Made by a program: the position numbers and the translations under genes. A stretch of 64,000 bases of DNA from Pyrinomonadaceae bacterium (GTDB lineage: Bacteria > Acidobacteriota > Blastocatellia > Pyrinomonadales > Pyrinomonadaceae), in contig JBEBJB010000028.1 in the NCBI GenBank assembly GCA_040080065.1, positions 1,495 through 65,494 on the forward strand, read 5' to 3'. The notes beneath the pieces are model-generated. The model was not told the origin of the DNA. It saw only the letters and a program-made list of their open reading frames with translations, and ran no database searches. Shown piece by piece: positions 11,566-60,080 of the stretch. The number at the start of each line of letters is the position of its first letter. Position 1 is the stretch's first letter.

Positions 11566-11662
11566 ATCGCCCCTACGGGGCTTAGGACTTTATTGTGAGC
11601 TAACCCCGGGTTCCGCTTTGCTTCACCCGGGGCTACATTCTGTCGCTGCTCCGCAGCTAAGA
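11566..11662. repeat. palindromic repeat (CCCCGGG...CCCGGGG type) in the ALDH-DUF779 spacer
   Basis: taaccccgggttccgctttgcttcacccggggcta followed by tgtcgctgctccgcagc. Resembles the short dispersed repeats at 42320-42562. Confidence 0.55.
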
Positions 11663-39380: not shown

Positions 39381-41177
39381 ATGCTGAAAAAAGTCCTTAT
39401 ATCCCTTCTATTTACGCTCCTTTTGGCGGTTTCGGCCCTTTCGCAGTCGCCGCAGAGTTCGAGCGATACGATTCTGATACTGCCGTTCGAGAATACTTCG
39501 GGAAAGCCTGAATTTAACTGGGTCGGTGAGAGTTTTGCCGATTCGCTGTCAGATCTTTTAAAGGTGCCTACGCTGAATGTTGTTTCAAATGAGGAGCGAA
39601 AGATCATCCAGCAGCGCCTGAGAATTCCGCTTACAAATATCCCGAGCCTCGCGACCGCTCTCAAAATGGCAAGAGATTCCAATGCAACGTTGCTGATCTC
39701 CGGCCGCTACACGATCGTTCCGGCCGGAGCGGAAACTGCGGCAACGATTAACGTTACTTCCAAGATCATCCGCGTGAACGAAGGCCGTTTCATGAGCGAA
39801 GTCATCGACGGACGCCAGGTAACCCGCGACATCAACCTGAATGACGCACTCGGCAACCTACAGACGATGCAGGGCCAGATCGCTTATCAGATCCTGTATC
39901 AGCGGGACAAGGCGTTGCCGTACTCACAGAATCAATTGATCGAGGCAGCGAATAAAGTTCCTGCGAGAGCGTTTGAGGCTTATATAAAAGGACTGCTGAC
40001 GCCGTCGCCCGAGGCTCGCGAGAATTACTTTAAGAACGCATCGAGGCTGTATACCGAGGCAACGCCGGACGCGACCTACACTGAGTCCGAGATCGAACTC
40101 GGCCATCTTTACCTCGGCCAACGCAAGTTTCCCGAAGCGATCGGTTCGTTTGAAAAAGTCGTCAGTGCGAGCCAGAAATGCCGCGATAAGGCAAAGGCGG
40201 ACAACAAACAGGCCCAGTGCAGCGATGAGAATTATGCCGAGGCATCGTTCTATATCGGGCTGATATTTTGGCAGCAGGGCAATTACGAACCGGCTCTCGC
40301 CACTCTTCGCCCGCTAACCGAAGACCTTAAATTGACCACCGTTTATAACGCTTTGGGAGCGATCGCTGTTCAGGCATCGCGAGCTGAGAAGAAAAACCCG
40401 GCGAAGGCCGCCGCCCTACTCAACGAAGGAATGGAGCTTCTGAAAAAGGCTTCGGACTCGGCCCCGGATGATGCGAATGTGCGGTTCAATTACGCGACGG
40501 CGTTGTTTTTGAATGGAAATACGGTCGATGCGGCAACTCAATTGCGTTCGACGATCGCCGCAAACCCGCGTGACGGAGAGGCTTACTATATTCTCGCCAA
40601 GGTGCTCGACGCCTTAAAAGATCCAACGCTCGCCGATATCAATAATCAGGCTCAGCGGTTCCTGACGGATAACAACCGCTACGCCAAGCTCGAGACCGAG
40701 TGGCTCAAGTCGAAGACGATCAGCGAGATCACGCTTCGGGTCAATCAGCCGGCGAGGAAGGACTTCGTCGCGGTTGTGCTGAGCCGAAAGCCTGTTTCGA
40801 CGGGCACCGCACAGATCAGCGAGACCGAAAGCCTGCTTGGTCTCGCACGCACTCTTATCAAGAACGGTAATGACGATGAAGCTATGACCACGCTCCGCCG
40901 CGTACTGGCGAGCGAACCAATGAGTGCCGAGAGCTATCTGCTGCTCGGCAAGATCCACCTGCGCCGCGGCGATATGGATCAGGCGGTCAGTTCGTTCAAA
41001 ACCTCGATATTCTGGGATAACAAGCTGATCGACGCTCACATCAGCCTCGGCAAGATATACGTTGAAAAAAACGATTGCCTGCAGGCGAAGGCTTACGTTG
41101 CATCTGCCCTCGAGATCAACGCAGAGAACGCCGACGCCCTGGCACTGCAAAGATTGTCGGAACGATGCTCCAAATAA
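39381..41177 (+). CDS. tetratricopeptide-repeat protein, exported
   Basis: 598 aa. Signal peptide. N-terminal ILILPFENTSGKPEFNWVGESFADSL domain followed by multiple TPR-like helical repeats. Confidence 0.8.
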   Translation: MLKKVLISLLFTLLLAVSALSQSPQSSSDTILILPFENTSGKPEFNWVGESFADSLSDLLKVPTLNVVSNEERKIIQQRLRIPLTNIPSLATALKMARDSNATLLISGRYTIVPAGAETAATINVTSKIIRVNEGRFMSEVIDGRQVTRDINLNDALGNLQTMQGQIAYQILYQRDKALPYSQNQLIEAANKVPARAFEAYIKGLLTPSPEARENYFKNASRLYTEATPDATYTESEIELGHLYLGQRKFPEAIGSFEKVVSASQKCRDKAKADNKQAQCSDENYAEASFYIGLIFWQQGNYEPALATLRPLTEDLKLTTVYNALGAIAVQASRAEKKNPAKAAALLNEGMELLKKASDSAPDDANVRFNYATALFLNGNTVDAATQLRSTIAANPRDGEAYYILAKVLDALKDPTLADINNQAQRFLTDNNRYAKLETEWLKSKTISEITLRVNQPARKDFVAVVLSRKPVSTGTAQISETESLLGLARTLIKNGNDDEAMTTLRRVLASEPMSAESYLLLGKIHLRRGDMDQAVSSFKTSIFWDNKLIDAHISLGKIYVEKNDCLQAKAYVASALEINAENADALALQRLSERCSK

Positions 41178-41190
41178 CGCAAAGCGTTTA

Positions 41191-41324
41191 GTCCAAAGTC
41201 TAAAGTCCAAGGCCCAAAGTCGGAGACCGCACGCGATTGCAATTTTCTTTTCATCAAAAAGCCCGAGAAATCGGGCTATTTTTATGGTCCGAAAGCTTTG
41301 GACATTGGACGTTGGGCTTTGGAC
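41191..41324. repeat. inverted GTCCAAAG-type repeat arms flanking a terminator
   Basis: gtccaaagtctaaagtccaaggcccaaagtc ... gtccgaaagctttggacattggacgttgggctttggac. Confidence 0.65.
41260..41285 (+). terminator. intrinsic terminator of the TPR gene
   Basis: agcccga gaaa tcgggct followed by atttttat. Confidence 0.7.
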
Positions 41325-41331
41325 CGATCTT

Positions 41332-41348
41332 TGGCACGCAACGTGCAT
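41332..41348 (+). promoter_or_regulatory. sigma-54 (-24/-12) promoter, copy 1
   Basis: TGGCACGcaacGTGCAt versus the consensus TGGCACG-N4-TTGCW. GG-N10-GC spacing is exact. Confidence 0.6.
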
Positions 41349-41357
41349 TAGTAAATA

Positions 41358-41501
41358 GCGGCCAGCTTGGTTTGGGAATCAAGACCTGCCGCCACAACTA
41401 CAACGAGCACGAGTTCAGCCACTGTGCTTTTAACCTTCCGAGCGTTCCACCAGTTGACCAACCTTTCAAGCCCGGCCGAATCGGCCGGGCTTCTTCCTTT
41501 T
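41358..41501 (+). ncRNA. candidate sigma-54-dependent small RNA, copy 1 (~145 nt)
   Basis: Runs from about 12 nt after the -12 element to the terminator aagcccggcc gaat ggccgggctt + cttccttttc. No ATG-initiated ORF. Paralogous to 41915-42059 with indels that break every reading frame. Confidence 0.5.
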
Positions 41502-41667
41502 CAATCAGTCGTTAGTGTGGCGTCCGGAGTCTGGAGCAGAAACCCGGAAGTACGTGGATCGCACCTCAACCATCACCGTTCCCATGGATATATGAACATC
41601 GAGATAACCTTTGTTGAAGAATCCGGGGGAGCTTTTTCACCTGTCATCTAAAACCGACAAATTTAAA

Positions 41668-41683
41668 TGTGAAACGTTTCACA
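41668..41683. promoter_or_regulatory. perfect TGTGAAACGTTTCACA palindrome (CRP/FNR-type or LacI/Cra-type site)
   Basis: Same 16-mer and flanks (cacactttttgt) as at 20526-20541. Confidence 0.45.
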
Positions 41684-41802
41684 CTTTTTGTGAAACGGCG
41701 ATAAATATTGCACGAAAGTTCGACAAACAGGGCGTTTGGTCGAAGGAATGCGGAGCTTTGCCGGGGATAAATGCCTCGATTGGTAGAGGTAAATGCGAGA
41801 TA

Positions 41803-41835
41803 GGTCGAAGGTTTTTGGAACTAAAAACTTCGACC
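41803..41835. promoter_or_regulatory. GGTCGAAGG...CTTCGACC inverted repeat, candidate enhancer (UAS) about 95 bp upstream of the copy-2 sigma-54 start
   Basis: ggtcgaaggtttttggaactaaaaacttcgacc. A further GGTCGAA lies 65 bp upstream (41738). Confidence 0.35.
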
Positions 41836-41888
41836 AAAAAAACCGCGACGCGCTCAAAACTCTCGACTGCGAACTCGCCACTATTCCG

Positions 41889-41905
41889 TGGCACGCTATA
41901 TGCAA
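41889..41905 (+). promoter_or_regulatory. sigma-54 (-24/-12) promoter, copy 2
   Basis: TGGCACGctatATGCAa. GG-N10-GC spacing is exact. Confidence 0.6.
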
Positions 41906-41914
41906 TAGAAGCAG

Positions 41915-42059
41915 TGGCCAGCTTGGTCACCCGATCAAGACCCTCCGCCATCACTACATCGAGCGCGGTTTGCCACTGTGCTCTTACACCTTCCGAGCGT
42001 TCCTACAGTTGTCCTTCCTTTAAGAGCCCGACTCACCCGAGTCGGGCTCTCCTCCTTTT
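41915..42059 (+). ncRNA. candidate sigma-54-dependent small RNA, copy 2 (~145 nt)
   Basis: Shares the blocks GGCCAGCTTGGT, ATCAAGACC, CCGCCA, GCCACTGTGCT and CCTTCCGAGCGTTCC with copy 1. Terminator agagcccgactc accc gagtcgggctct + cctcctttta. Confidence 0.5.
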
Positions 42060-42253
42060 AAACTCAGTGTTTTCGGGCTTTCCAGTAAATACAGGGCTAT
42101 CGTTCAATTTGAATCAAATTCGTTCAATCTGCGTCAGGCGTTTCGGGCTATCTGACCTGTCGCCTGAAGGCGAACCGGTTATCTGACAGATTTTGTCAGT
42201 TGGAACTGACGCAAATTGTTGTTTTGTCATTTTGAACGGTCAAAATGGTTTAA

Positions 42254-42289
42254 CTGGAGGGCGAGCATCCTGCTCGCCCGTTTTTTGTT
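42254..42289 (+). terminator. terminator-like hairpin (half copy of palindromic family 2) with T-run
   Basis: ctggagGGCGAGCAtccTGCTCGCCcgttttttgtt. Confidence 0.45.
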
Positions 42290-42319: not shown

Positions 42320-42562
42320 AGTCAGAACCGCCTGCGTAAGCGGGTGGAACGAACACATGGTGGGGACGACCCAGGATGTCTGAAAAACGGCGAATTTGAG
42401 AATGTCGGCTCCATAGGAGCCAAATGTTTGTAGAAGACGATGTCTAACTACGAACATAGCTCCGTAGGAGCGACCCATCGAGGTCGAAGCGGTGCCGCTC
42501 CTAAGGAGCTTTTTACTTCTGTTGTTTCTGTTTCTACAAACATACCGCTCCGCTGGAGCTAA
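42320..42562. repeat. cluster of short dispersed palindromes (GCTCC-N-GGAGC type)
   Basis: cggctccataggagccaaatgtttgtag, tagctccgtaggagcgac, ccgctcctaaggagc, ctacaaacataccgctccgctggagc. The only ORF here (42227-42478, minus) is a repeat translation. Confidence 0.7.
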
Positions 42563-42580
42563 AACCGTACCGATATTACG

Positions 42581-44170
42581 ATGAGCCTTATATCCAAAAT
42601 ACTCCCATCCTGGAAAACCGCTCTGCTCGCTATCCTCGCAGCGGTTTTGTTGATCGTGGCATTTCCCGATTTCGAATGGTGGTTCACGGCGTGGTTCGCT
42701 CTGGTTCCGTTGATGTGGGCGGTGGAGCGAGAAAAGGAATCGGTGGTGCGGTCGTTTGTGGTTGGATGGCTGTTCGGAACGGTATTCTTTTTTGGCACGT
42801 GCTGGTGGCTGACGTTTGCTCCGATAAACTACGCAGGATTTCCGCCGTGGCTCGCGTATTCGGGAATGGCGTTCGTAGCCGCCGTTGTCGGGCTGTTTCC
42901 GGCACTGTTCGCGGGCATCCTGGCGGTGTTGCTCAGGCGGTTCGGTTCGTGGGGTTTCCTGGCGGCTCCGTTTGTTTGGGTATTCACCGAGTTTCTACGG
43001 TATTGGCTGGCGGGGAATAACTGGAATGCTATTGGGTATTCGCAGGCATTCGTTGAGGTATGGCCGGTGTTCCTTTTCTGGACAGCTCGTCTCGGAGGTG
43101 TTTTGCTTACGGGCGCCGTGGTTGTGAGCGTCAACTGTCTGATAGCTCGTACATTTGTAGTTCTGATAGGGGCAGACGAAATGCGACCGAAGCTCAAACA
43201 GTGTTTCATCGAGTGGGCGGCCTTCCTGACAATTTCGTTGATTGCACTTATTGTGAACTTTCTCACTATTGGGGAGTTACGGTCGGAGGTGCCTCGGTTC
43301 ACGGTAATTGCAGTTCAACCAAATGTTCCAATGAGCTATCTTGATCCAATAAGGCTTGAGCAACTTCGTGAACGACAGATCAACCTTGCCGAAGCGGAAA
43401 TCGCAAAACTCACAGCCGAACAACGATCAAACATCTTAGTTGTCTTCCCCGAATCCCCAATGAACTTTATGTACACGGATGACCGAGAGTTTCAGAAGTT
43501 TATCGGGGATTTTACCCAACGAAATAATGTTAGCGTCCTGTTTAACTCGGCTGAGCCTGACTCAACCAACGCCAAGTATTTTAACTCGGCGGTGATGGTC
43601 GGAAGTGACGGACGAAAGGTCGATGAGTACGACAAGATATACCTCCTGCCCTTTGGTGAGGCCATTCCGTCGCCGCTCGACGGCATCATGCCAGGTTTTG
43701 TTGGGAATTTTTCTTATGGCCGTGAATACGATCTATTTCCCGTAGGTGATGCCAAAGCGGGCGTTATGATCTGCTTCGAATCGCATTTTGGAGCGTTGAG
43801 CCGCGAGTATGTCCGCAAAGGGGCGGACGTTCTAATTGAAATGACCAACGACGGGTATCTCGGTCCGACACCTGTCCTGCGACAGCATCTGGCCAACGCC
43901 GTTTTCAGGGCAGTCGAAACGAAAAGACCTGTCCTTCGGGCGACGAACGTCGGTATAACAGTACGCATAAATCAATATGGCGATATGTGCGATTCGCTAA
44001 TTAGCTGTGGCCCAGAATCGTATACTGAGGGAGCAAGCGTCTGGAGCGTATCAAAAAGCGACGGTTCGCAGACGTTTTACGTAAAATACGGCGATTGGTT
44101 TGCGTGGCTGTGTTCTGCGGTGACATTAGGAATATTGGCATTGAGCCTTAGGAGAAGATCAACCACATAG
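42581..44170 (+). CDS. lnt: apolipoprotein N-acyltransferase
   Basis: 529 aa. N-terminal multi-TM region plus a C-terminal CN-hydrolase domain (VVFPES...ICFES). Confidence 0.85.
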   Translation: MSLISKILPSWKTALLAILAAVLLIVAFPDFEWWFTAWFALVPLMWAVEREKESVVRSFVVGWLFGTVFFFGTCWWLTFAPINYAGFPPWLAYSGMAFVAAVVGLFPALFAGILAVLLRRFGSWGFLAAPFVWVFTEFLRYWLAGNNWNAIGYSQAFVEVWPVFLFWTARLGGVLLTGAVVVSVNCLIARTFVVLIGADEMRPKLKQCFIEWAAFLTISLIALIVNFLTIGELRSEVPRFTVIAVQPNVPMSYLDPIRLEQLRERQINLAEAEIAKLTAEQRSNILVVFPESPMNFMYTDDREFQKFIGDFTQRNNVSVLFNSAEPDSTNAKYFNSAVMVGSDGRKVDEYDKIYLLPFGEAIPSPLDGIMPGFVGNFSYGREYDLFPVGDAKAGVMICFESHFGALSREYVRKGADVLIEMTNDGYLGPTPVLRQHLANAVFRAVETKRPVLRATNVGITVRINQYGDMCDSLISCGPESYTEGASVWSVSKSDGSQTFYVKYGDWFAWLCSAVTLGILALSLRRRSTT

Positions 44171-44235
44171 GAACATAGGACACATAGGCTGAAGATATTT
44201 TGGTCCTTTTCTATGTGTTCTATGTATCTATGTGG
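44163..44235. repeat. CCACATAGG-type inverted repeat at the lnt 3' end
   Basis: ccacataggaacataggacacatagg ... ctatgtgttctatgtatctatgtgg. Confidence 0.7.
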
Positions 44236-44259: not shown

Positions 44260-45361
44260 ATGGAACTAACCGACCTACAAACCAAATTCGACGAGATCAA
44301 AGAGAAAGTTGCCCAACTTGGGAGGTTTCTTTGACGCGCCTGCCAAACAACGCGAATTAGACGAATCGGAAAAACTTATTTCGACGCCGGGATTCTGGGA
44401 CGATCAGGAGTCGGCGCAGAAGGTCGTGCAGCAGCGGTCGCGGATCGAGAAGGCTTTGTCGCGGCAGAAGGCGTTTGAGACGGGCGTTTCGGATGCTGAG
44501 GTGTTGTTCGATTTTGCGGCTGAGGATGCTGATTCGGCGACGGAACTTCAAGCATTGATCGAGCGTTTGGATAAAGAGGTCGCCGAGGCTGAGACCGAGA
44601 GTTTGCTGTCGGGCGAAACGGACGCGAACAACGCGATCTGCTCGCTCCAGGCCGGAGCGGGCGGGACGGACGCTCAGGATTTTTGCCAGATGCTGCTGCG
44701 GATGTATCTGCGTTGGTGCGAGAAAAAAGGTTTTAAGGCCGAGGTCATCGACGAACAATCGGGTAGCGAAGCCGGTTTAAAATCGGCGACATTTCGTGTC
44801 GAGGGCGATTACGCCTACGGGTTGCTTTCCGCCGAGGCCGGAGTTCACCGGCTCGTGCGCATCTCGCCGTTCAACTCGGGCGGCAGCCGCGAGACTTCGT
44901 TCGCATCGCTTTTTGTCTCGCCCGAGATCGACGAGACGATCGAGGTGAACATTGAGGACAAGGACCTTCGCATAGACACCTATCGCTCGTCCGGAGCGGG
45001 AGGGCAGCACGTGAACGTGACCGATTCGGCAGTAAGAATCACGCATATTCCGACCAATATTGTTGTAACATGTCAGAACCAGCGTTCGCAGATCCAAAAC
45101 CGGGCCGTTGCGATGCAGGTGCTGCGGTCGAAACTGTACGAGGTCGAACTAGAAAAACTAAGAGCCGGAGCCGCCGAATTAGAGGCCACCAAACAAGACA
45201 TCGCCTTTGGCTCGCAGATCAGAAATTATGTGCTGCATCCGTACAAACTCGTGAAAGACACGCGTACTAAATTTGAAAAATCGGATGTCGATGCGGTTTT
45301 GGATGGGGAGATCGATGAGTTTATTAAGGAGTTTTTGGTGTTCAAGAAATCCAACGTCTAG
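44260..45361 (+). CDS. prfB: peptide chain release factor 2, two frames joined by programmed +1 frameshift (44260..44331 + 44333..45361)
   Basis: Frame 0 reads MELTDLQTKFDEIKEKVAQLGRFL then in-frame TGA. The +1 frame continues DAPAKQRELDES... with SPF and GGQHVN motifs. The ORF track shows only the downstream frame. Confidence 0.9.
44320..44335 (+). promoter_or_regulatory. RF2 +1 frameshift site
   Basis: GGGAGG ttt CTT TGA C: an internal Shine-Dalgarno-like box, 3-nt spacer, slippery CUU and a UGA-C stop, as in the classical prfB site. Confidence 0.85.
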
Positions 45362-53539: not shown

Positions 53540-54050
53540 CGCGTTGCAAAAGCCCGCAGGTCAGTAAGGGCGTTCTGTGGCACAAGCCCGCACGTTAGTA
53601 AGGGCGTTCCTGTGGCACCATCAGTAAGGGGGTTTGCGTGGCACAAGCCCGCATGTCAGTAAGGGCGTTTCGCTTGAACGATTGATTTTGATTCGAGACA
53701 CGACGATGCTCCTGCATACCGCTTCAATGTGCATATCGCCCTTACTAACGTGCGGGCTAGTGCAACGATGGTCCTCGCGGTGCAAAAGCCCGCGTGTAAA
53801 CCAGGGCGTTCTTGTGGCACAAGCCCGCATGTCAGTAAGGGCGTTTCGCTTGAACAATTGATTTTGATTCGAGACACGACGATGCTCCTGCATACCCCTC
53901 AATGTGCATATCGCCCTTACTAACGTGCGGGCTTGTGCCACGATCGCCTTAATGTTCATACCGCCCTTACTAACGTGCGGGCTTGTGCCACGATCGCCTT
54001 AATGTTCATACCGCCCTTACTAACGTGCGGGCTTGTGCCACGATGGCATT
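53540..54050. repeat. cluster (BIME-like) of about 10 family-1-related REP arms including a ~175-bp direct duplication
   Basis: Repeated aagcccgca(t/c)gt(c/t)agtaagggcg and the inverse cgcccttactaacgtgcgggcttgtgccacg. 53633-53760 is nearly identical to 53810-53937. The 3' end carries three tandem atcgccttaatgttcataccgcccttactaacgtgcgggcttgtgccacg units. Confidence 0.85.
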
Positions 54051-55011
54051 AGGCGGCTGGATTTTCGAACGTATAGACAATCTTCCATTCCCCAGCTTCT
54101 TTCAAAAATATCGATGTGCCCCAGAAGCTTTCGAGCGGCGGGCCTTCGCAGGTTCCGGTGGCGTTGCCTTTGAAGGTGAGGATGCCGATGACGGGTGAGA
54201 TCTGGGTGGCGATGCCGTCGGACGGGGCGGCGGTTTTGATGTCGCATTTTGGCAGGATCCACGCATCGACTACCGCATTTCTGCCGACGGTGACGGTTCC
54301 GGTGCCGTCGACGAGCGTGAGGTCTTCGGTTAAAAGATGTTCCATGGCCGCACGGTCGCGGGCCTTCCACGCATCCCACACCTTTGTTTCGACAGCGAAA
54401 AGCTCGCCGGTAAAGGCTTCGCTCTTCGGTGCCTCGGCTTGCCTGGCTGCGGGCTTTTTCGGTGCAGCGGCCTTCGGTGAAGCTGGTTTCTGAGCCGCCG
54501 CCGGATCGAGTACCACCACATCATTGTGGTACGCCGAACGCCATTTGTCGCCGTTTCTGACGTAGAGCGAAGCCGACATCACCGGGCTCGGCAGCTTTTG
54601 TCCGCCGCAGGTTCCGTCGATGGTGACCTTGACGGTCAGAGCGATGGCATCGTTGCCGACCGGCGTCATCTTTTCGTCCGACAGGGAATAGCTCGCGACC
54701 TCGCATTTGGTTTCGGTGATGCGTTTGATGATGCCCGCTTTGTCGACTCGCGTGCCGCCGATGAACGAGACATAGTCGTCAGCGTAATACTCCTTCCAGA
54801 ATGCGGCATCGCCTTTTTTCCAAGCTTCCAAAGCCTTCGTTTCCAGCTCAAGCAGCGAGCCTTTCGTCGGAGCCGCCGCAACGGCCTTCTCGATCTTAGC
54901 CGTCGTCTCAGCGTTCGCCGGTACAGCGTCAGCATTCGCCGCACCGCCACCGCAGCCCGCAAACAAACCAACCGCAACCATAAACCCAACAAACACAAAC
55001 CCTTTCATCAT
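54049..55011 (-). CDS. lipoprotein with two NTF2-like (DUF4440/SnoaL-like) domains, paralog
   Basis: Start at MMKGFVFVGFMVAVGLFAGCGG (lipobox). Same two-module architecture as 52409-53410. Confidence 0.6.
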   Translation of the reverse strand: MMKGFVFVGFMVAVGLFAGCGGGAANADAVPANAETTAKIEKAVAAAPTKGSLLELETKALEAWKKGDAAFWKEYYADDYVSFIGGTRVDKAGIIKRITETKCEVASYSLSDEKMTPVGNDAIALTVKVTIDGTCGGQKLPSPVMSASLYVRNGDKWRSAYHNDVVVLDPAAAQKPASPKAAAPKKPAARQAEAPKSEAFTGELFAVETKVWDAWKARDRAAMEHLLTEDLTLVDGTGTVTVGRNAVVDAWILPKCDIKTAAPSDGIATQISPVIGILTFKGNATGTCEGPPLESFWGTSIFLKEAGEWKIVYTFENPAA

Positions 55012-59064: not shown

Positions 59065-60080
59065 TGTCAGCCTGTCACGCGCAGGGATATGATACTAAAC
59101 CGCAATGGGTTTGCGAAGTATATAATTCCCCCGAGCGTTCCCCAGTCGTCCTAATTGGGTGTAGTTTAAACACTTATACAAGATATTGCAAGAAAAAAGT
59201 TTCACACGGCTTTCACGAGCCTTTGTATGTCGCGGAATGGCTGGAACGATCCCGATCTTTGCCCGCCCAAAATCGTCTCACTTTCATGCGCAAAGTGAGA
59301 CGGCTTAAATGTAATTTCATCAACCACATACGGCCCAAAATCGTCTCTTTTTGTAAAAAACATCATGCTGAGTGAGACGGCCGGTCGTTCCCACTTTTGT
59401 GCGCAAATTGGAACGGGTTAACTGTTGTGAAAACAGCGCCTTATCGGAAAATATCGTTCCATTTTGAAAATTTCTTAACCTTGGTCGTCCTGAAACAGGT
59501 TTACATACGATCCGCCGCCCCGCAAAGCAGTTCAGCAGCACCTTGCCGCCACTCTCGCCTATCGTTAGGCTCTGCTCTCTATCATCATGTGCGGGGCACC
59601 TAGCGATAAAGCCATACTGGCTCCTCTTGACCCCACTAAGTTATTGAGTAATGTCAGTGATCGACATATGTTTCGAACTCACTCTGCGGTTGCTTCGTGA
59701 GTCTCACATATTGGCACACCTTGCACAGATGATACAAGCACGGTATGCACAGATTGTATAGTTATGCGGGTTTTGCGTACTTTTTCGGCGGGTGTATCGG
59801 CTGTTTCAGTTGTTGCAGATTGGGATGGTGAAACAGCTACGCAGCGTCAAAGACTCACTCTTATTCCTTCTCGCCGAGCGGAAAAGCTATGCTTTTCCGT
59901 GAGTCTCCCGCTAAACCAACGCGGCTATGCCGCCGCCTTCGAAGCCCGGCGGCACAGCCTCGTGATCAAAAAAGAAGCTGCCGGAATAGCACAGCATTTC
60001 CGCTCGGCGATGCGGTGGAACCGCAAAGAGGCTTTTTTCTGCCGACCGCTGACCGCCGACTGCTAACCGCCAACTGATTC

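Follow-up and report, generated by a model that had tools for sequence, protein, structure and literature searches.

A 64,000-nt stretch of a Pyrinomonadaceae metagenome-assembled genome (MAG; Acidobacteriota, Blastocatellia) from a soil acidobacterium, hereafter called the window, carries two tandem units of about 145 nt between the gene of a tetratricopeptide repeat (TPR) protein and lnt, and these we predict to be small RNA (sRNA) genes. With a probability of about 0.72, each unit would be an independent gene for a non-coding RNA that is Sigma-54-dependent, acts in trans and pairs with Shine-Dalgarno-like sites. Confidence is high that we are dealing with a conserved, structured and non-coding unit under a Sigma-54-type promoter, as judged by comparison with its relatives, and moderate for a base-pairing, anti-Shine-Dalgarno mechanism. 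An earlier note on the window had proposed a pair of paralogous sRNAs of this kind; the features it listed are all found where it placed them, and its reading is supported as far as sequence analysis reaches. Comparison of the related sequences established six properties: a conserved promoter, a conserved structure, a conserved terminator, a conserved single-stranded core, the lack of coding capacity and a fixed synteny. The coordinates of the features are collected in Table 1.

Related loci were collected in two scans with different patterns, neither of which included the promoter; the counts given in the following are among the matches listed. The pattern CCACTGTGC-N5-9-CCTTCCGAGCG retrieved at least 119 stretches from species-representative genomes, and the pattern GACCCCGCCGCCA-N45-70-CAGTTGTCC at least 120 from metagenomes. 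Two of the former (L058 and L059) and four of the latter (L148, L166, L171 and L240) were chance matches to the pattern and were excluded, and the two scans together gave at least approximately 230 related loci. All but the two chance matches among the 119 listed genome stretches (117) belong to the Acidobacteriota/Blastocatellia. Loci L009 to L088, chance matches aside, derive from MAGs labelled Acidobacteriota, Blastocatellia, Pyrinomonadales or 'Chloracidobacterium sp.', and L089 to L127 carry the family unit. The same holds for relatives that were retrieved via Lnt homologs: the gene order is kept and the TPR-lnt spacer of each contains a unit with the same promoter and blocks, and a terminator with a different stem sequence. 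Conservation among relatives had been put forward as a check on the sRNA proposal, and it is seen for the unit, its -24/-12 promoter and its terminator.

TGGCAC-N6-TGCW has no exact match in the window other than the two -24/-12 promoters on which that proposal was founded, and both are located in the TPR-lnt intergenic region. They read TGGCACG-N4-rTGCA and have the correct GG-N10-GC spacing, with GG and GC one helical turn apart as in the class consensus TGGCACG-N4-TTGCW, albeit that the -12 element reads GTGC or ATGC, not TTGC. With one mismatch allowed, three Sigma-54-like matches were observed in the window against 4.8 expected. A single hexadecamer of this type is thus not significant by itself, and the case for the promoters rests on the comparison with relatives. 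There, the strict -24/-12 motif was found at a fixed distance in 215 of the 220 units with intact upstream sequence from both scans. In the genome set the strict TGGCAC-N6-TGC was present in 119 of 122 such units (the other three are one base off), 69-82 nt and most commonly 72-73 nt 5' of the anchor; in the metagenome set it was present in 96 of 98, the two exceptions having TTGT at -12. Within the genome set, conservation is 90% or higher in TGGCACG and TGC and drops to 40-80% in the variable 4-nt spacer between them, a pattern that is expected of a functional -24/-12 promoter. The 11 nt past the -12 element (-11 to +1) are variable as well, and conservation restarts at (A/G)YGGCYAGCUUG, precisely at the position expected of a Sigma-54 start site. 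Placing the RNA start 12 nt past the -12 element and at the point where conservation begins gives predicted starts at ~41358 (copy 1) and ~41914 (copy 2).

As the earlier note had described, the units of ~145 nt end in a GC hairpin that is followed by a T-rich tail; the distance between promoter and terminator hairpin is ~120-135 nt in both. The blocks that had been seen to be shared between the copies were recovered as direct repeats D1, D2, D3 and D8, and alignment by MAFFT gave a mean column identity of 83%, with short indels between the blocks. On the plain (unfitted) MAFFT alignment of 120 distinct units, RNAalifold predicted two stem-loops, SL1 and SL2, and the terminator. The consensus of SL1 is GGC/GCC closing CUUGAU/AUCAAG and that of SL2 is GAGCGCGGU/ACUGUGCUY; the latter corresponds to the stem that had been noted as GAGCAC/GUGCUU in copy 1 and GAGCGC/GUGCUC in copy 2. 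A covariance model was built from the alignment of these 120 units, and within the window it finds only the two copies.

The structure was tested on 99 metagenomic members (91 distinct) that were aligned to the model. Among the 91 distinct members 98.8% of the cells form standard pairs, versus 36-43% after a shift of the 3' partners by 1-3 columns, and double changes occur in 15 pairs, a number that was reached by none of 500 shuffles. The double changes are distributed over the inner SL1 helix (4 of 6 pairs), SL2 (2 of 9) and the terminator (9 of 10), and in six further pairs of SL2 only one partner differs, so that G-U alternates with A-U or G-C. The covariation that had been proposed as a check on the stems is thus present. 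RNAalifold also proposed a long-range helix between columns 50-52 and 105-107, which is almost invariant, is neither supported nor refuted, and was kept out of the model.

Between SL2 and the terminator lies a pyrimidine-rich stretch of ~35 nt that is unpaired in both the minimum free energy and the centroid folds. It holds the core CCUUCCGAGCGUUCC, identical in 70 of 70 true metagenome members (the core was not part of the search pattern). The stretch with CCUUCC, earlier pointed out as a plausible seed, is the most conserved part of the unit and is predicted to be single-stranded. Of 215 distinct units, 211 contain CAGUUG, 162 a second GUCCUUCC and 160 CACCUUCC; the last of these closely resembles the anti-Shine-Dalgarno tail at the 3' end of 16S rRNA, CACCUCCU. 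No conserved open reading frame (ORF) or start codon was found across 214 family members.

The genetic context is nearly invariant: all 179 loci with sufficient flanking sequence have the unit 3' of the TPR gene, and in 165 of 167 loci it precedes lnt in the same orientation. Most loci have a single copy, and tandem pairs occur in the window and at L008/L010, L012, L042, L088, L214 and L219. Each of the tandem copies has its own promoter and terminator; in the window, copy 2 is orthologous to the single copy of most loci, and copy 1 represents a more divergent, upstream type of paralog. The upstream paralog has CCAACC in place of the second CCUUCC, and in that of L214 the -24 element reads TGGCAT and the core contains CAUUCC. 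The tandem pair is a lineage-specific duplication.

The units match no Rfam 15 family, at the gathering threshold or at E≤10, and the sub-threshold matches, mostly to terminator hairpins, score far below the gathering scores; full-text literature searches returned no description of such an RNA. This agrees with the earlier note, in which Rfam was named as the place to look. By analogy, we would consider the RNA as a new family of a known kind, the Sigma-54-dependent sRNAs, with a function as in Qrr, Pxr and NrsZ. Like Qrr1-5 of Vibrio (RF00378) it has a Sigma-54-type promoter, a length in the range of ~100-150 nt, 5' stem-loops, a conserved single-stranded seed, an intrinsic terminator and, in some genomes, more than one paralog. 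Unlike Qrr1-5 it belongs to a different phylum; it has no sequence or covariance-model similarity to them, their conserved core of ~32 nt included (Rfam, also at E≤10), and a LuxO-type site (TTGCAW3TGCAA) was not found near the locus within two mismatches. The comparison with multi-copy sRNAs of the Qrr type made in the earlier note therefore holds for the tandem pair with its Sigma-54-type promoters and not for the copy number and layout: most relatives are single-copy and the copies lie in tandem at one syntenic locus, whereas the qrr genes are dispersed. Pxr of Myxococcus and related myxobacteria, an sRNA from outside the usual proteobacterial models that controls fruiting-body development, reportedly depends on Sigma-54, occupies one conserved locus and has tandem paralogs in part of the lineages; it is not known to be related in sequence. 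CrcZ/CrcY of Pseudomonas (CbrB/Sigma-54) and GlmY/GlmZ of the Enterobacteria (GlrR/Sigma-54) are Sigma-54-dependent pairs of sRNA paralogs that act mainly by sequestration of proteins (Hfq/Crc and RapZ, respectively), CrcZ with several A-rich motifs. The Pyrinomonadaceae RNA differs from this type in having a single invariant pyrimidine-rich 15-mer and at most two to three CCUUCC. Acido-Lenti-1 (RF01687), known from the same phylum, differs in size and architecture and has no match to the sRNA locus at E≤10. Elsewhere in the window a motif of that family was found at 11604-11658 (+), beside the 3' end of an aldehyde dehydrogenase gene, with 37.3 bits just at the gathering threshold.

In silico, the units have the generic properties of trans-acting sRNAs: an autonomous promoter and terminator, an intergenic location, no coding capacity, a covarying structure and a conserved, accessible seed. 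From these we infer transcription, Sigma-54 dependence and pairing with Shine-Dalgarno-like targets, and the following course of events can be proposed. Sigma-54 RNA polymerase would recognise the conserved TGGCACG at -24 and TGC at -12, and the promoter would, as for every Sigma-54 promoter, be silent until a signal activates an ATP-dependent enhancer-binding protein. The RNA would start ~12 nt past the GC of the -12 element, fold into the two 5' stem-loops and end at a constitutive intrinsic terminator, and would expose the invariant core CCUUCCGAGCGUUCC in the open stretch of ~35 nt, with in most members a second CCUUCC after the core. Since this stretch resembles the 16S anti-Shine-Dalgarno tail, base-pairing in trans with ribosome-binding or other purine-rich sites in mRNA appears most likely, and such pairing at the ribosome-binding or similar sites of targets would block translation. 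As the upstream paralog has CCAACC instead of the second CCUUCC, the target sets of the two copies probably overlap without being identical.

Several observations weigh against this proposal. The seed binds the 51 translation-initiation regions of the window no better than background in terms of duplex energies, so that no convincing target emerged, and exact complements of the seed, with up to three mismatches, occur in the window at chance level; these searches were confined to 64 kb of genome and had little power. The start regions of lnt and ftsK yielded duplex energies that do not differ from those of shuffled-seed controls. Only one conserved neighbour, prfB, exceeded its control, with -21.6 kcal/mol for the start/frameshift region versus -15.4 kcal/mol for shuffled seeds (110 distinct sequences), yet it does not covary with the sRNA: the prfB variants (CAG, CUC) are unmatched by changes in the sRNA. 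On the side of the regulator, translation of the window and of the family loci in all six frames revealed neither an RpoN box nor a GAFTGA motif, and a Pfam scan of the ten larger ORFs of the window identified neither rpoN nor an enhancer-binding protein. In the region 5' of the -24 element, as far as the TPR stop codon, no conserved enhancer k-mer was found, only the end of the TPR coding sequence being conserved. Finally, the invariant synteny leaves room for a role in cis. Sigma-54 is near-universal in diderm bacteria with lipopolysaccharide-containing outer membranes (PMC3162934), and since rpoN is not in the window or in the retrieved flanks, its presence in the host lineage is taken from this general knowledge.

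The prfB gene has a classical programmed +1 frameshift site (44260-44335), consisting of the ATG at 44260, a GGGAGG that resembles a Shine-Dalgarno sequence (44320-44325) and CTT TGA C (44329-44335), and the context CAACTTGGGAGGTTTCTTTGAC is at least 90% conserved among 63 distinct contexts. The conserved site can pair with CCUUC-AGUUG of the sRNA in 5+5 bp around a 2-nt bulge. As a target, prfB is a weak lead only.

An alternative use of the same motifs, which we regard as unlikely, would be that of a decoy for a protein or the ribosome: the CCUUCC motifs would titrate out a protein that binds RNA, as CsrB/RsmZ or CrcZ do, or would mimic the anti-Shine-Dalgarno sequence. In 174 of the 215 distinct units two or three CCUUCC/CCUCC motifs lie in an unstructured context, which suits such a function, as do the window searches that yielded no specific mRNA target and the precedents CrcZ and CrcY for sequestering RNAs that depend on Sigma-54. 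However, two to three motifs compare with ~5 in CrcZ and up to ~20 in CsrB, the invariant core is a unique 15-mer and not a repeated short motif, and no known binder of pyrimidine motifs was identified.

The constant position of the element, 3' of the same TPR gene and 5' of lnt on the same strand, with dispersed copies not seen among the listed loci, is what a leader acting in cis would give. In that case the Sigma-54 promoter would drive an lnt-prfB operon and the element of ~145 nt would be a conditional attenuator of read-through into lnt. We consider this improbable, somewhat more so than the decoy. The terminator stems covary freely and the stretch preceding them is invariant, RNAalifold predicts no antiterminator, and no riboswitch or leader family was matched in Rfam. 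Moreover, the spacer between the element and lnt has a median of 288 nt (range 180-657) and conserved motif islands of its own, and tandem loci have two complete promoter-terminator units in series. The earlier note had reckoned with the region being part of a longer mRNA or untranslated region: the unit is not in an ORF and shows no antiterminator pairing, both contrary to this, and it is the synteny with lnt that keeps a role in cis conceivable.

The promoters are flanked by uncommon repeats. Of 208 distinct upstream regions, 57 have period-7 arrays (nnACTnn) that abut the -24 element; arrays of another period were not seen. The sequence of the heptad unit varies between species (GAACTTT, GGACTTG, CGACTCA, CCACTCT and others), but the phase of the ACT core is fixed at ~10, 17, 24, 31 and 38 nt from TGGCAC, to which both window copies conform; in the array of copy 1, 'AC' is found 9, 16 and 30 nt 5' of the T of TGGCAC and the unit at 23 nt has GC. 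Beyond the terminator of the TPR gene, 72 of the 208 loci have an inverted partner array with a minimum of 16 matches in 20, and the shuffled controls yielded none; in the window the upstream arm is 83% complementary to 41296-41324 over 29 nt (inverted repeat I1). Heptad arrays are also seen in related loci, e.g. at 3365-3500 of L006 and at 3030-3170 of L008, and a further intergenic one is located at 60044-60076 of the window. Various metagenome contigs (L131, L134, L143, L158, L160 and others) end a few tens of nt 5' of the sRNA unit, and these ends are probably where the assembly broke off at the repeat arrays rather than where transcripts end. Between lnt and prfB a second pair of inverted short tandem repeats (44164-44188 and 44209-44234; CACATAGGA x2.9 and TTCTATGTG x3) forms a long hairpin, and as this is similar, repeat-built hairpins may be common to the intergenic regions of these genomes.

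In the spacer between the sRNA and lnt, the palindrome-like and direct-repeat islands are conserved across 60 relatives (consensus TTCGTTCAwTyTGA x2, TGACAAAATTyGTCA x2 and GGTCAAATTGA x2). They are candidate binding sites for a transcription factor or other protein and may or may not be part of the sRNA unit; their role could be in the promoter of lnt or that of an enhancer acting from downstream. A more elaborate scenario, which we hold to be very unlikely, would combine these elements into an unusual wiring of a Sigma-54 promoter: in place of a conserved upstream enhancer, the phase-locked arrays would provide an insulating structure or a cruciform, combined with an enhancer 3' of the gene, and the seed, as a mimic of the 16S anti-Shine-Dalgarno tail, would occlude the Shine-Dalgarno-like stimulator of the +1 frameshift of prfB, two genes away, linking Sigma-54 signalling to the autoregulation of release factor 2.

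That the unit would be no RNA gene at all, its conserved blocks being regulatory sites in the DNA or the unit encoding a small protein, is hardly credible: two forward frames are fairly open, with few stop codons and median open stretches of 42-46 codons, and the neighbouring spacer has conserved DNA motifs, but no more than 67 of 214 units have an ATG in frame, none was seen in reading the two window copies, indels of 1-2 nt break the frame between the blocks (both as the earlier note had it), the 15-mer is invariant including third positions in genomes whose Lnt proteins share no more than 60-73% identity, and the stems show the compensatory changes that an RNA structure predicts. With no conserved ORF or start codon among the 214 units, coding potential was ruled out.

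Table 1. Positions of the predicted sRNA units, their promoters and surrounding features in the window.
Feature	Position	Strand	Details
Sigma-54-type promoter, copy 1, TGGCACGCAACGTGCA	41332-41347	+	exact match; GG 41333-41334, GC 41345-41346; orthologous position conserved
Predicted sRNA copy 1, upstream 'type 1' paralog, ~144 nt	41358-41501	+	covariance model 117.4 bits, E 1e-34; fold -47.6 kcal/mol, z -2.8
Copy 1, SL1	41358-41392		
Copy 1, SL2	41405-41429		
Copy 1, single-stranded stretch	41432-41467		
Copy 1, invariant CCUUCCGAGCGUUCC	41434-41448		
Copy 1, terminator hairpin	41468-41492		11 bp, 9 GC; followed by U-rich tail
Sigma-54-type promoter, copy 2, TGGCACGCTATATGCA	41889-41904	+	exact match; GG 41890-41891, GC 41902-41903; conserved in relatives
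Predicted sRNA copy 2, 'type 2' paralog, ~146 nt	41914-42059	+	covariance model 157.4 bits, E 5e-47; fold -50.2 kcal/mol, z -5.5
Copy 2, SL1	41914-41948		
Copy 2, SL2	41961-41983		
Copy 2, single-stranded stretch	41984-42022		contains a second CCUUCC
Copy 2, invariant 15-mer	41989-42003		
Copy 2, terminator hairpin	42023-42050		12 bp, 8 GC; followed by tail
TPR protein gene	39381-41177		598 aa
Upstream arm, inverted period-7 array (AGTCCAA x4.6)	41190-41221		just past TPR stop codon; Tandem Repeats Finder (TRF)
Terminator-like hairpin, bidirectional	41260-41277		between the two heptad arms; terminator scan; presumed TPR gene terminator
Downstream heptad arm (TTGGACn x3.9)	41296-41324		abuts -24 element of copy 1
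Degenerate heptad array, copy 2	41859-41882		ACT at 41859, 41866, 41873, 41880, exact period 7; phase to TGGCAC as in copy 1
Palindrome-like/direct-repeat islands, sRNA-lnt spacer	42100-42240		TCGTTCAATyTGA x2, CTGACAGATTTTGTCAG, GACGCAAATTGT, TTTTGTCAnTTnGAAC x2; repeats D6, D7, I9
lnt, apolipoprotein N-acyltransferase	42581-44170		protein 100% identical to Pyrinomonadaceae MAG protein
prfB site CAACUUGGGAGGUUUCUUUGAC	44314-44335		highly conserved

The local gene order in the window is polA (on the minus strand), the TPR gene, the two RNA units, lnt, prfB and ftsK. Between copy 2 and lnt, a third hairpin resembling an intrinsic terminator (GGGCGAGCATCCTGCTCGCCC with a T-run, 42259-42279) is found, also in L008, which could be the end of another small transcript or an insulator of the lnt promoter. 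Further downstream, at 42405-42560, four GCTCC-N3-4-GGAGC mini-hairpins lie within a 28-nt inverted repeat (42408-42435 and 42532-42559); this insertion resembles repetitive extragenic palindromic (REP) or miniature inverted-repeat transposable (MITE) elements and lengthens the sRNA-lnt spacer of the window with respect to relatives. At a distance, two tandem-repeat arrays were observed (53546-53669 and 53897-54051, periods 34 and 50), whose unit cores, GCACAAGCCCGCACGT and ACGTGCGGGCTTGTGC, are mutually reverse-complementary.

The Acidobacteriota are among the most abundant soil bacteria, and for the Blastocatellia no regulatory RNA was found in our Rfam and literature searches. With its clear promoter class, supported structure and invariant seed, the family offers a ready entry point: it could be deposited as an RNA family and is open to direct tests. 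As Sigma-54 promoters are strictly activator-dependent, the RNA would mark a signalling pathway in these organisms, for which the adjacency to lnt and prfB and the unusual promoter repeats provide concrete first hypotheses.

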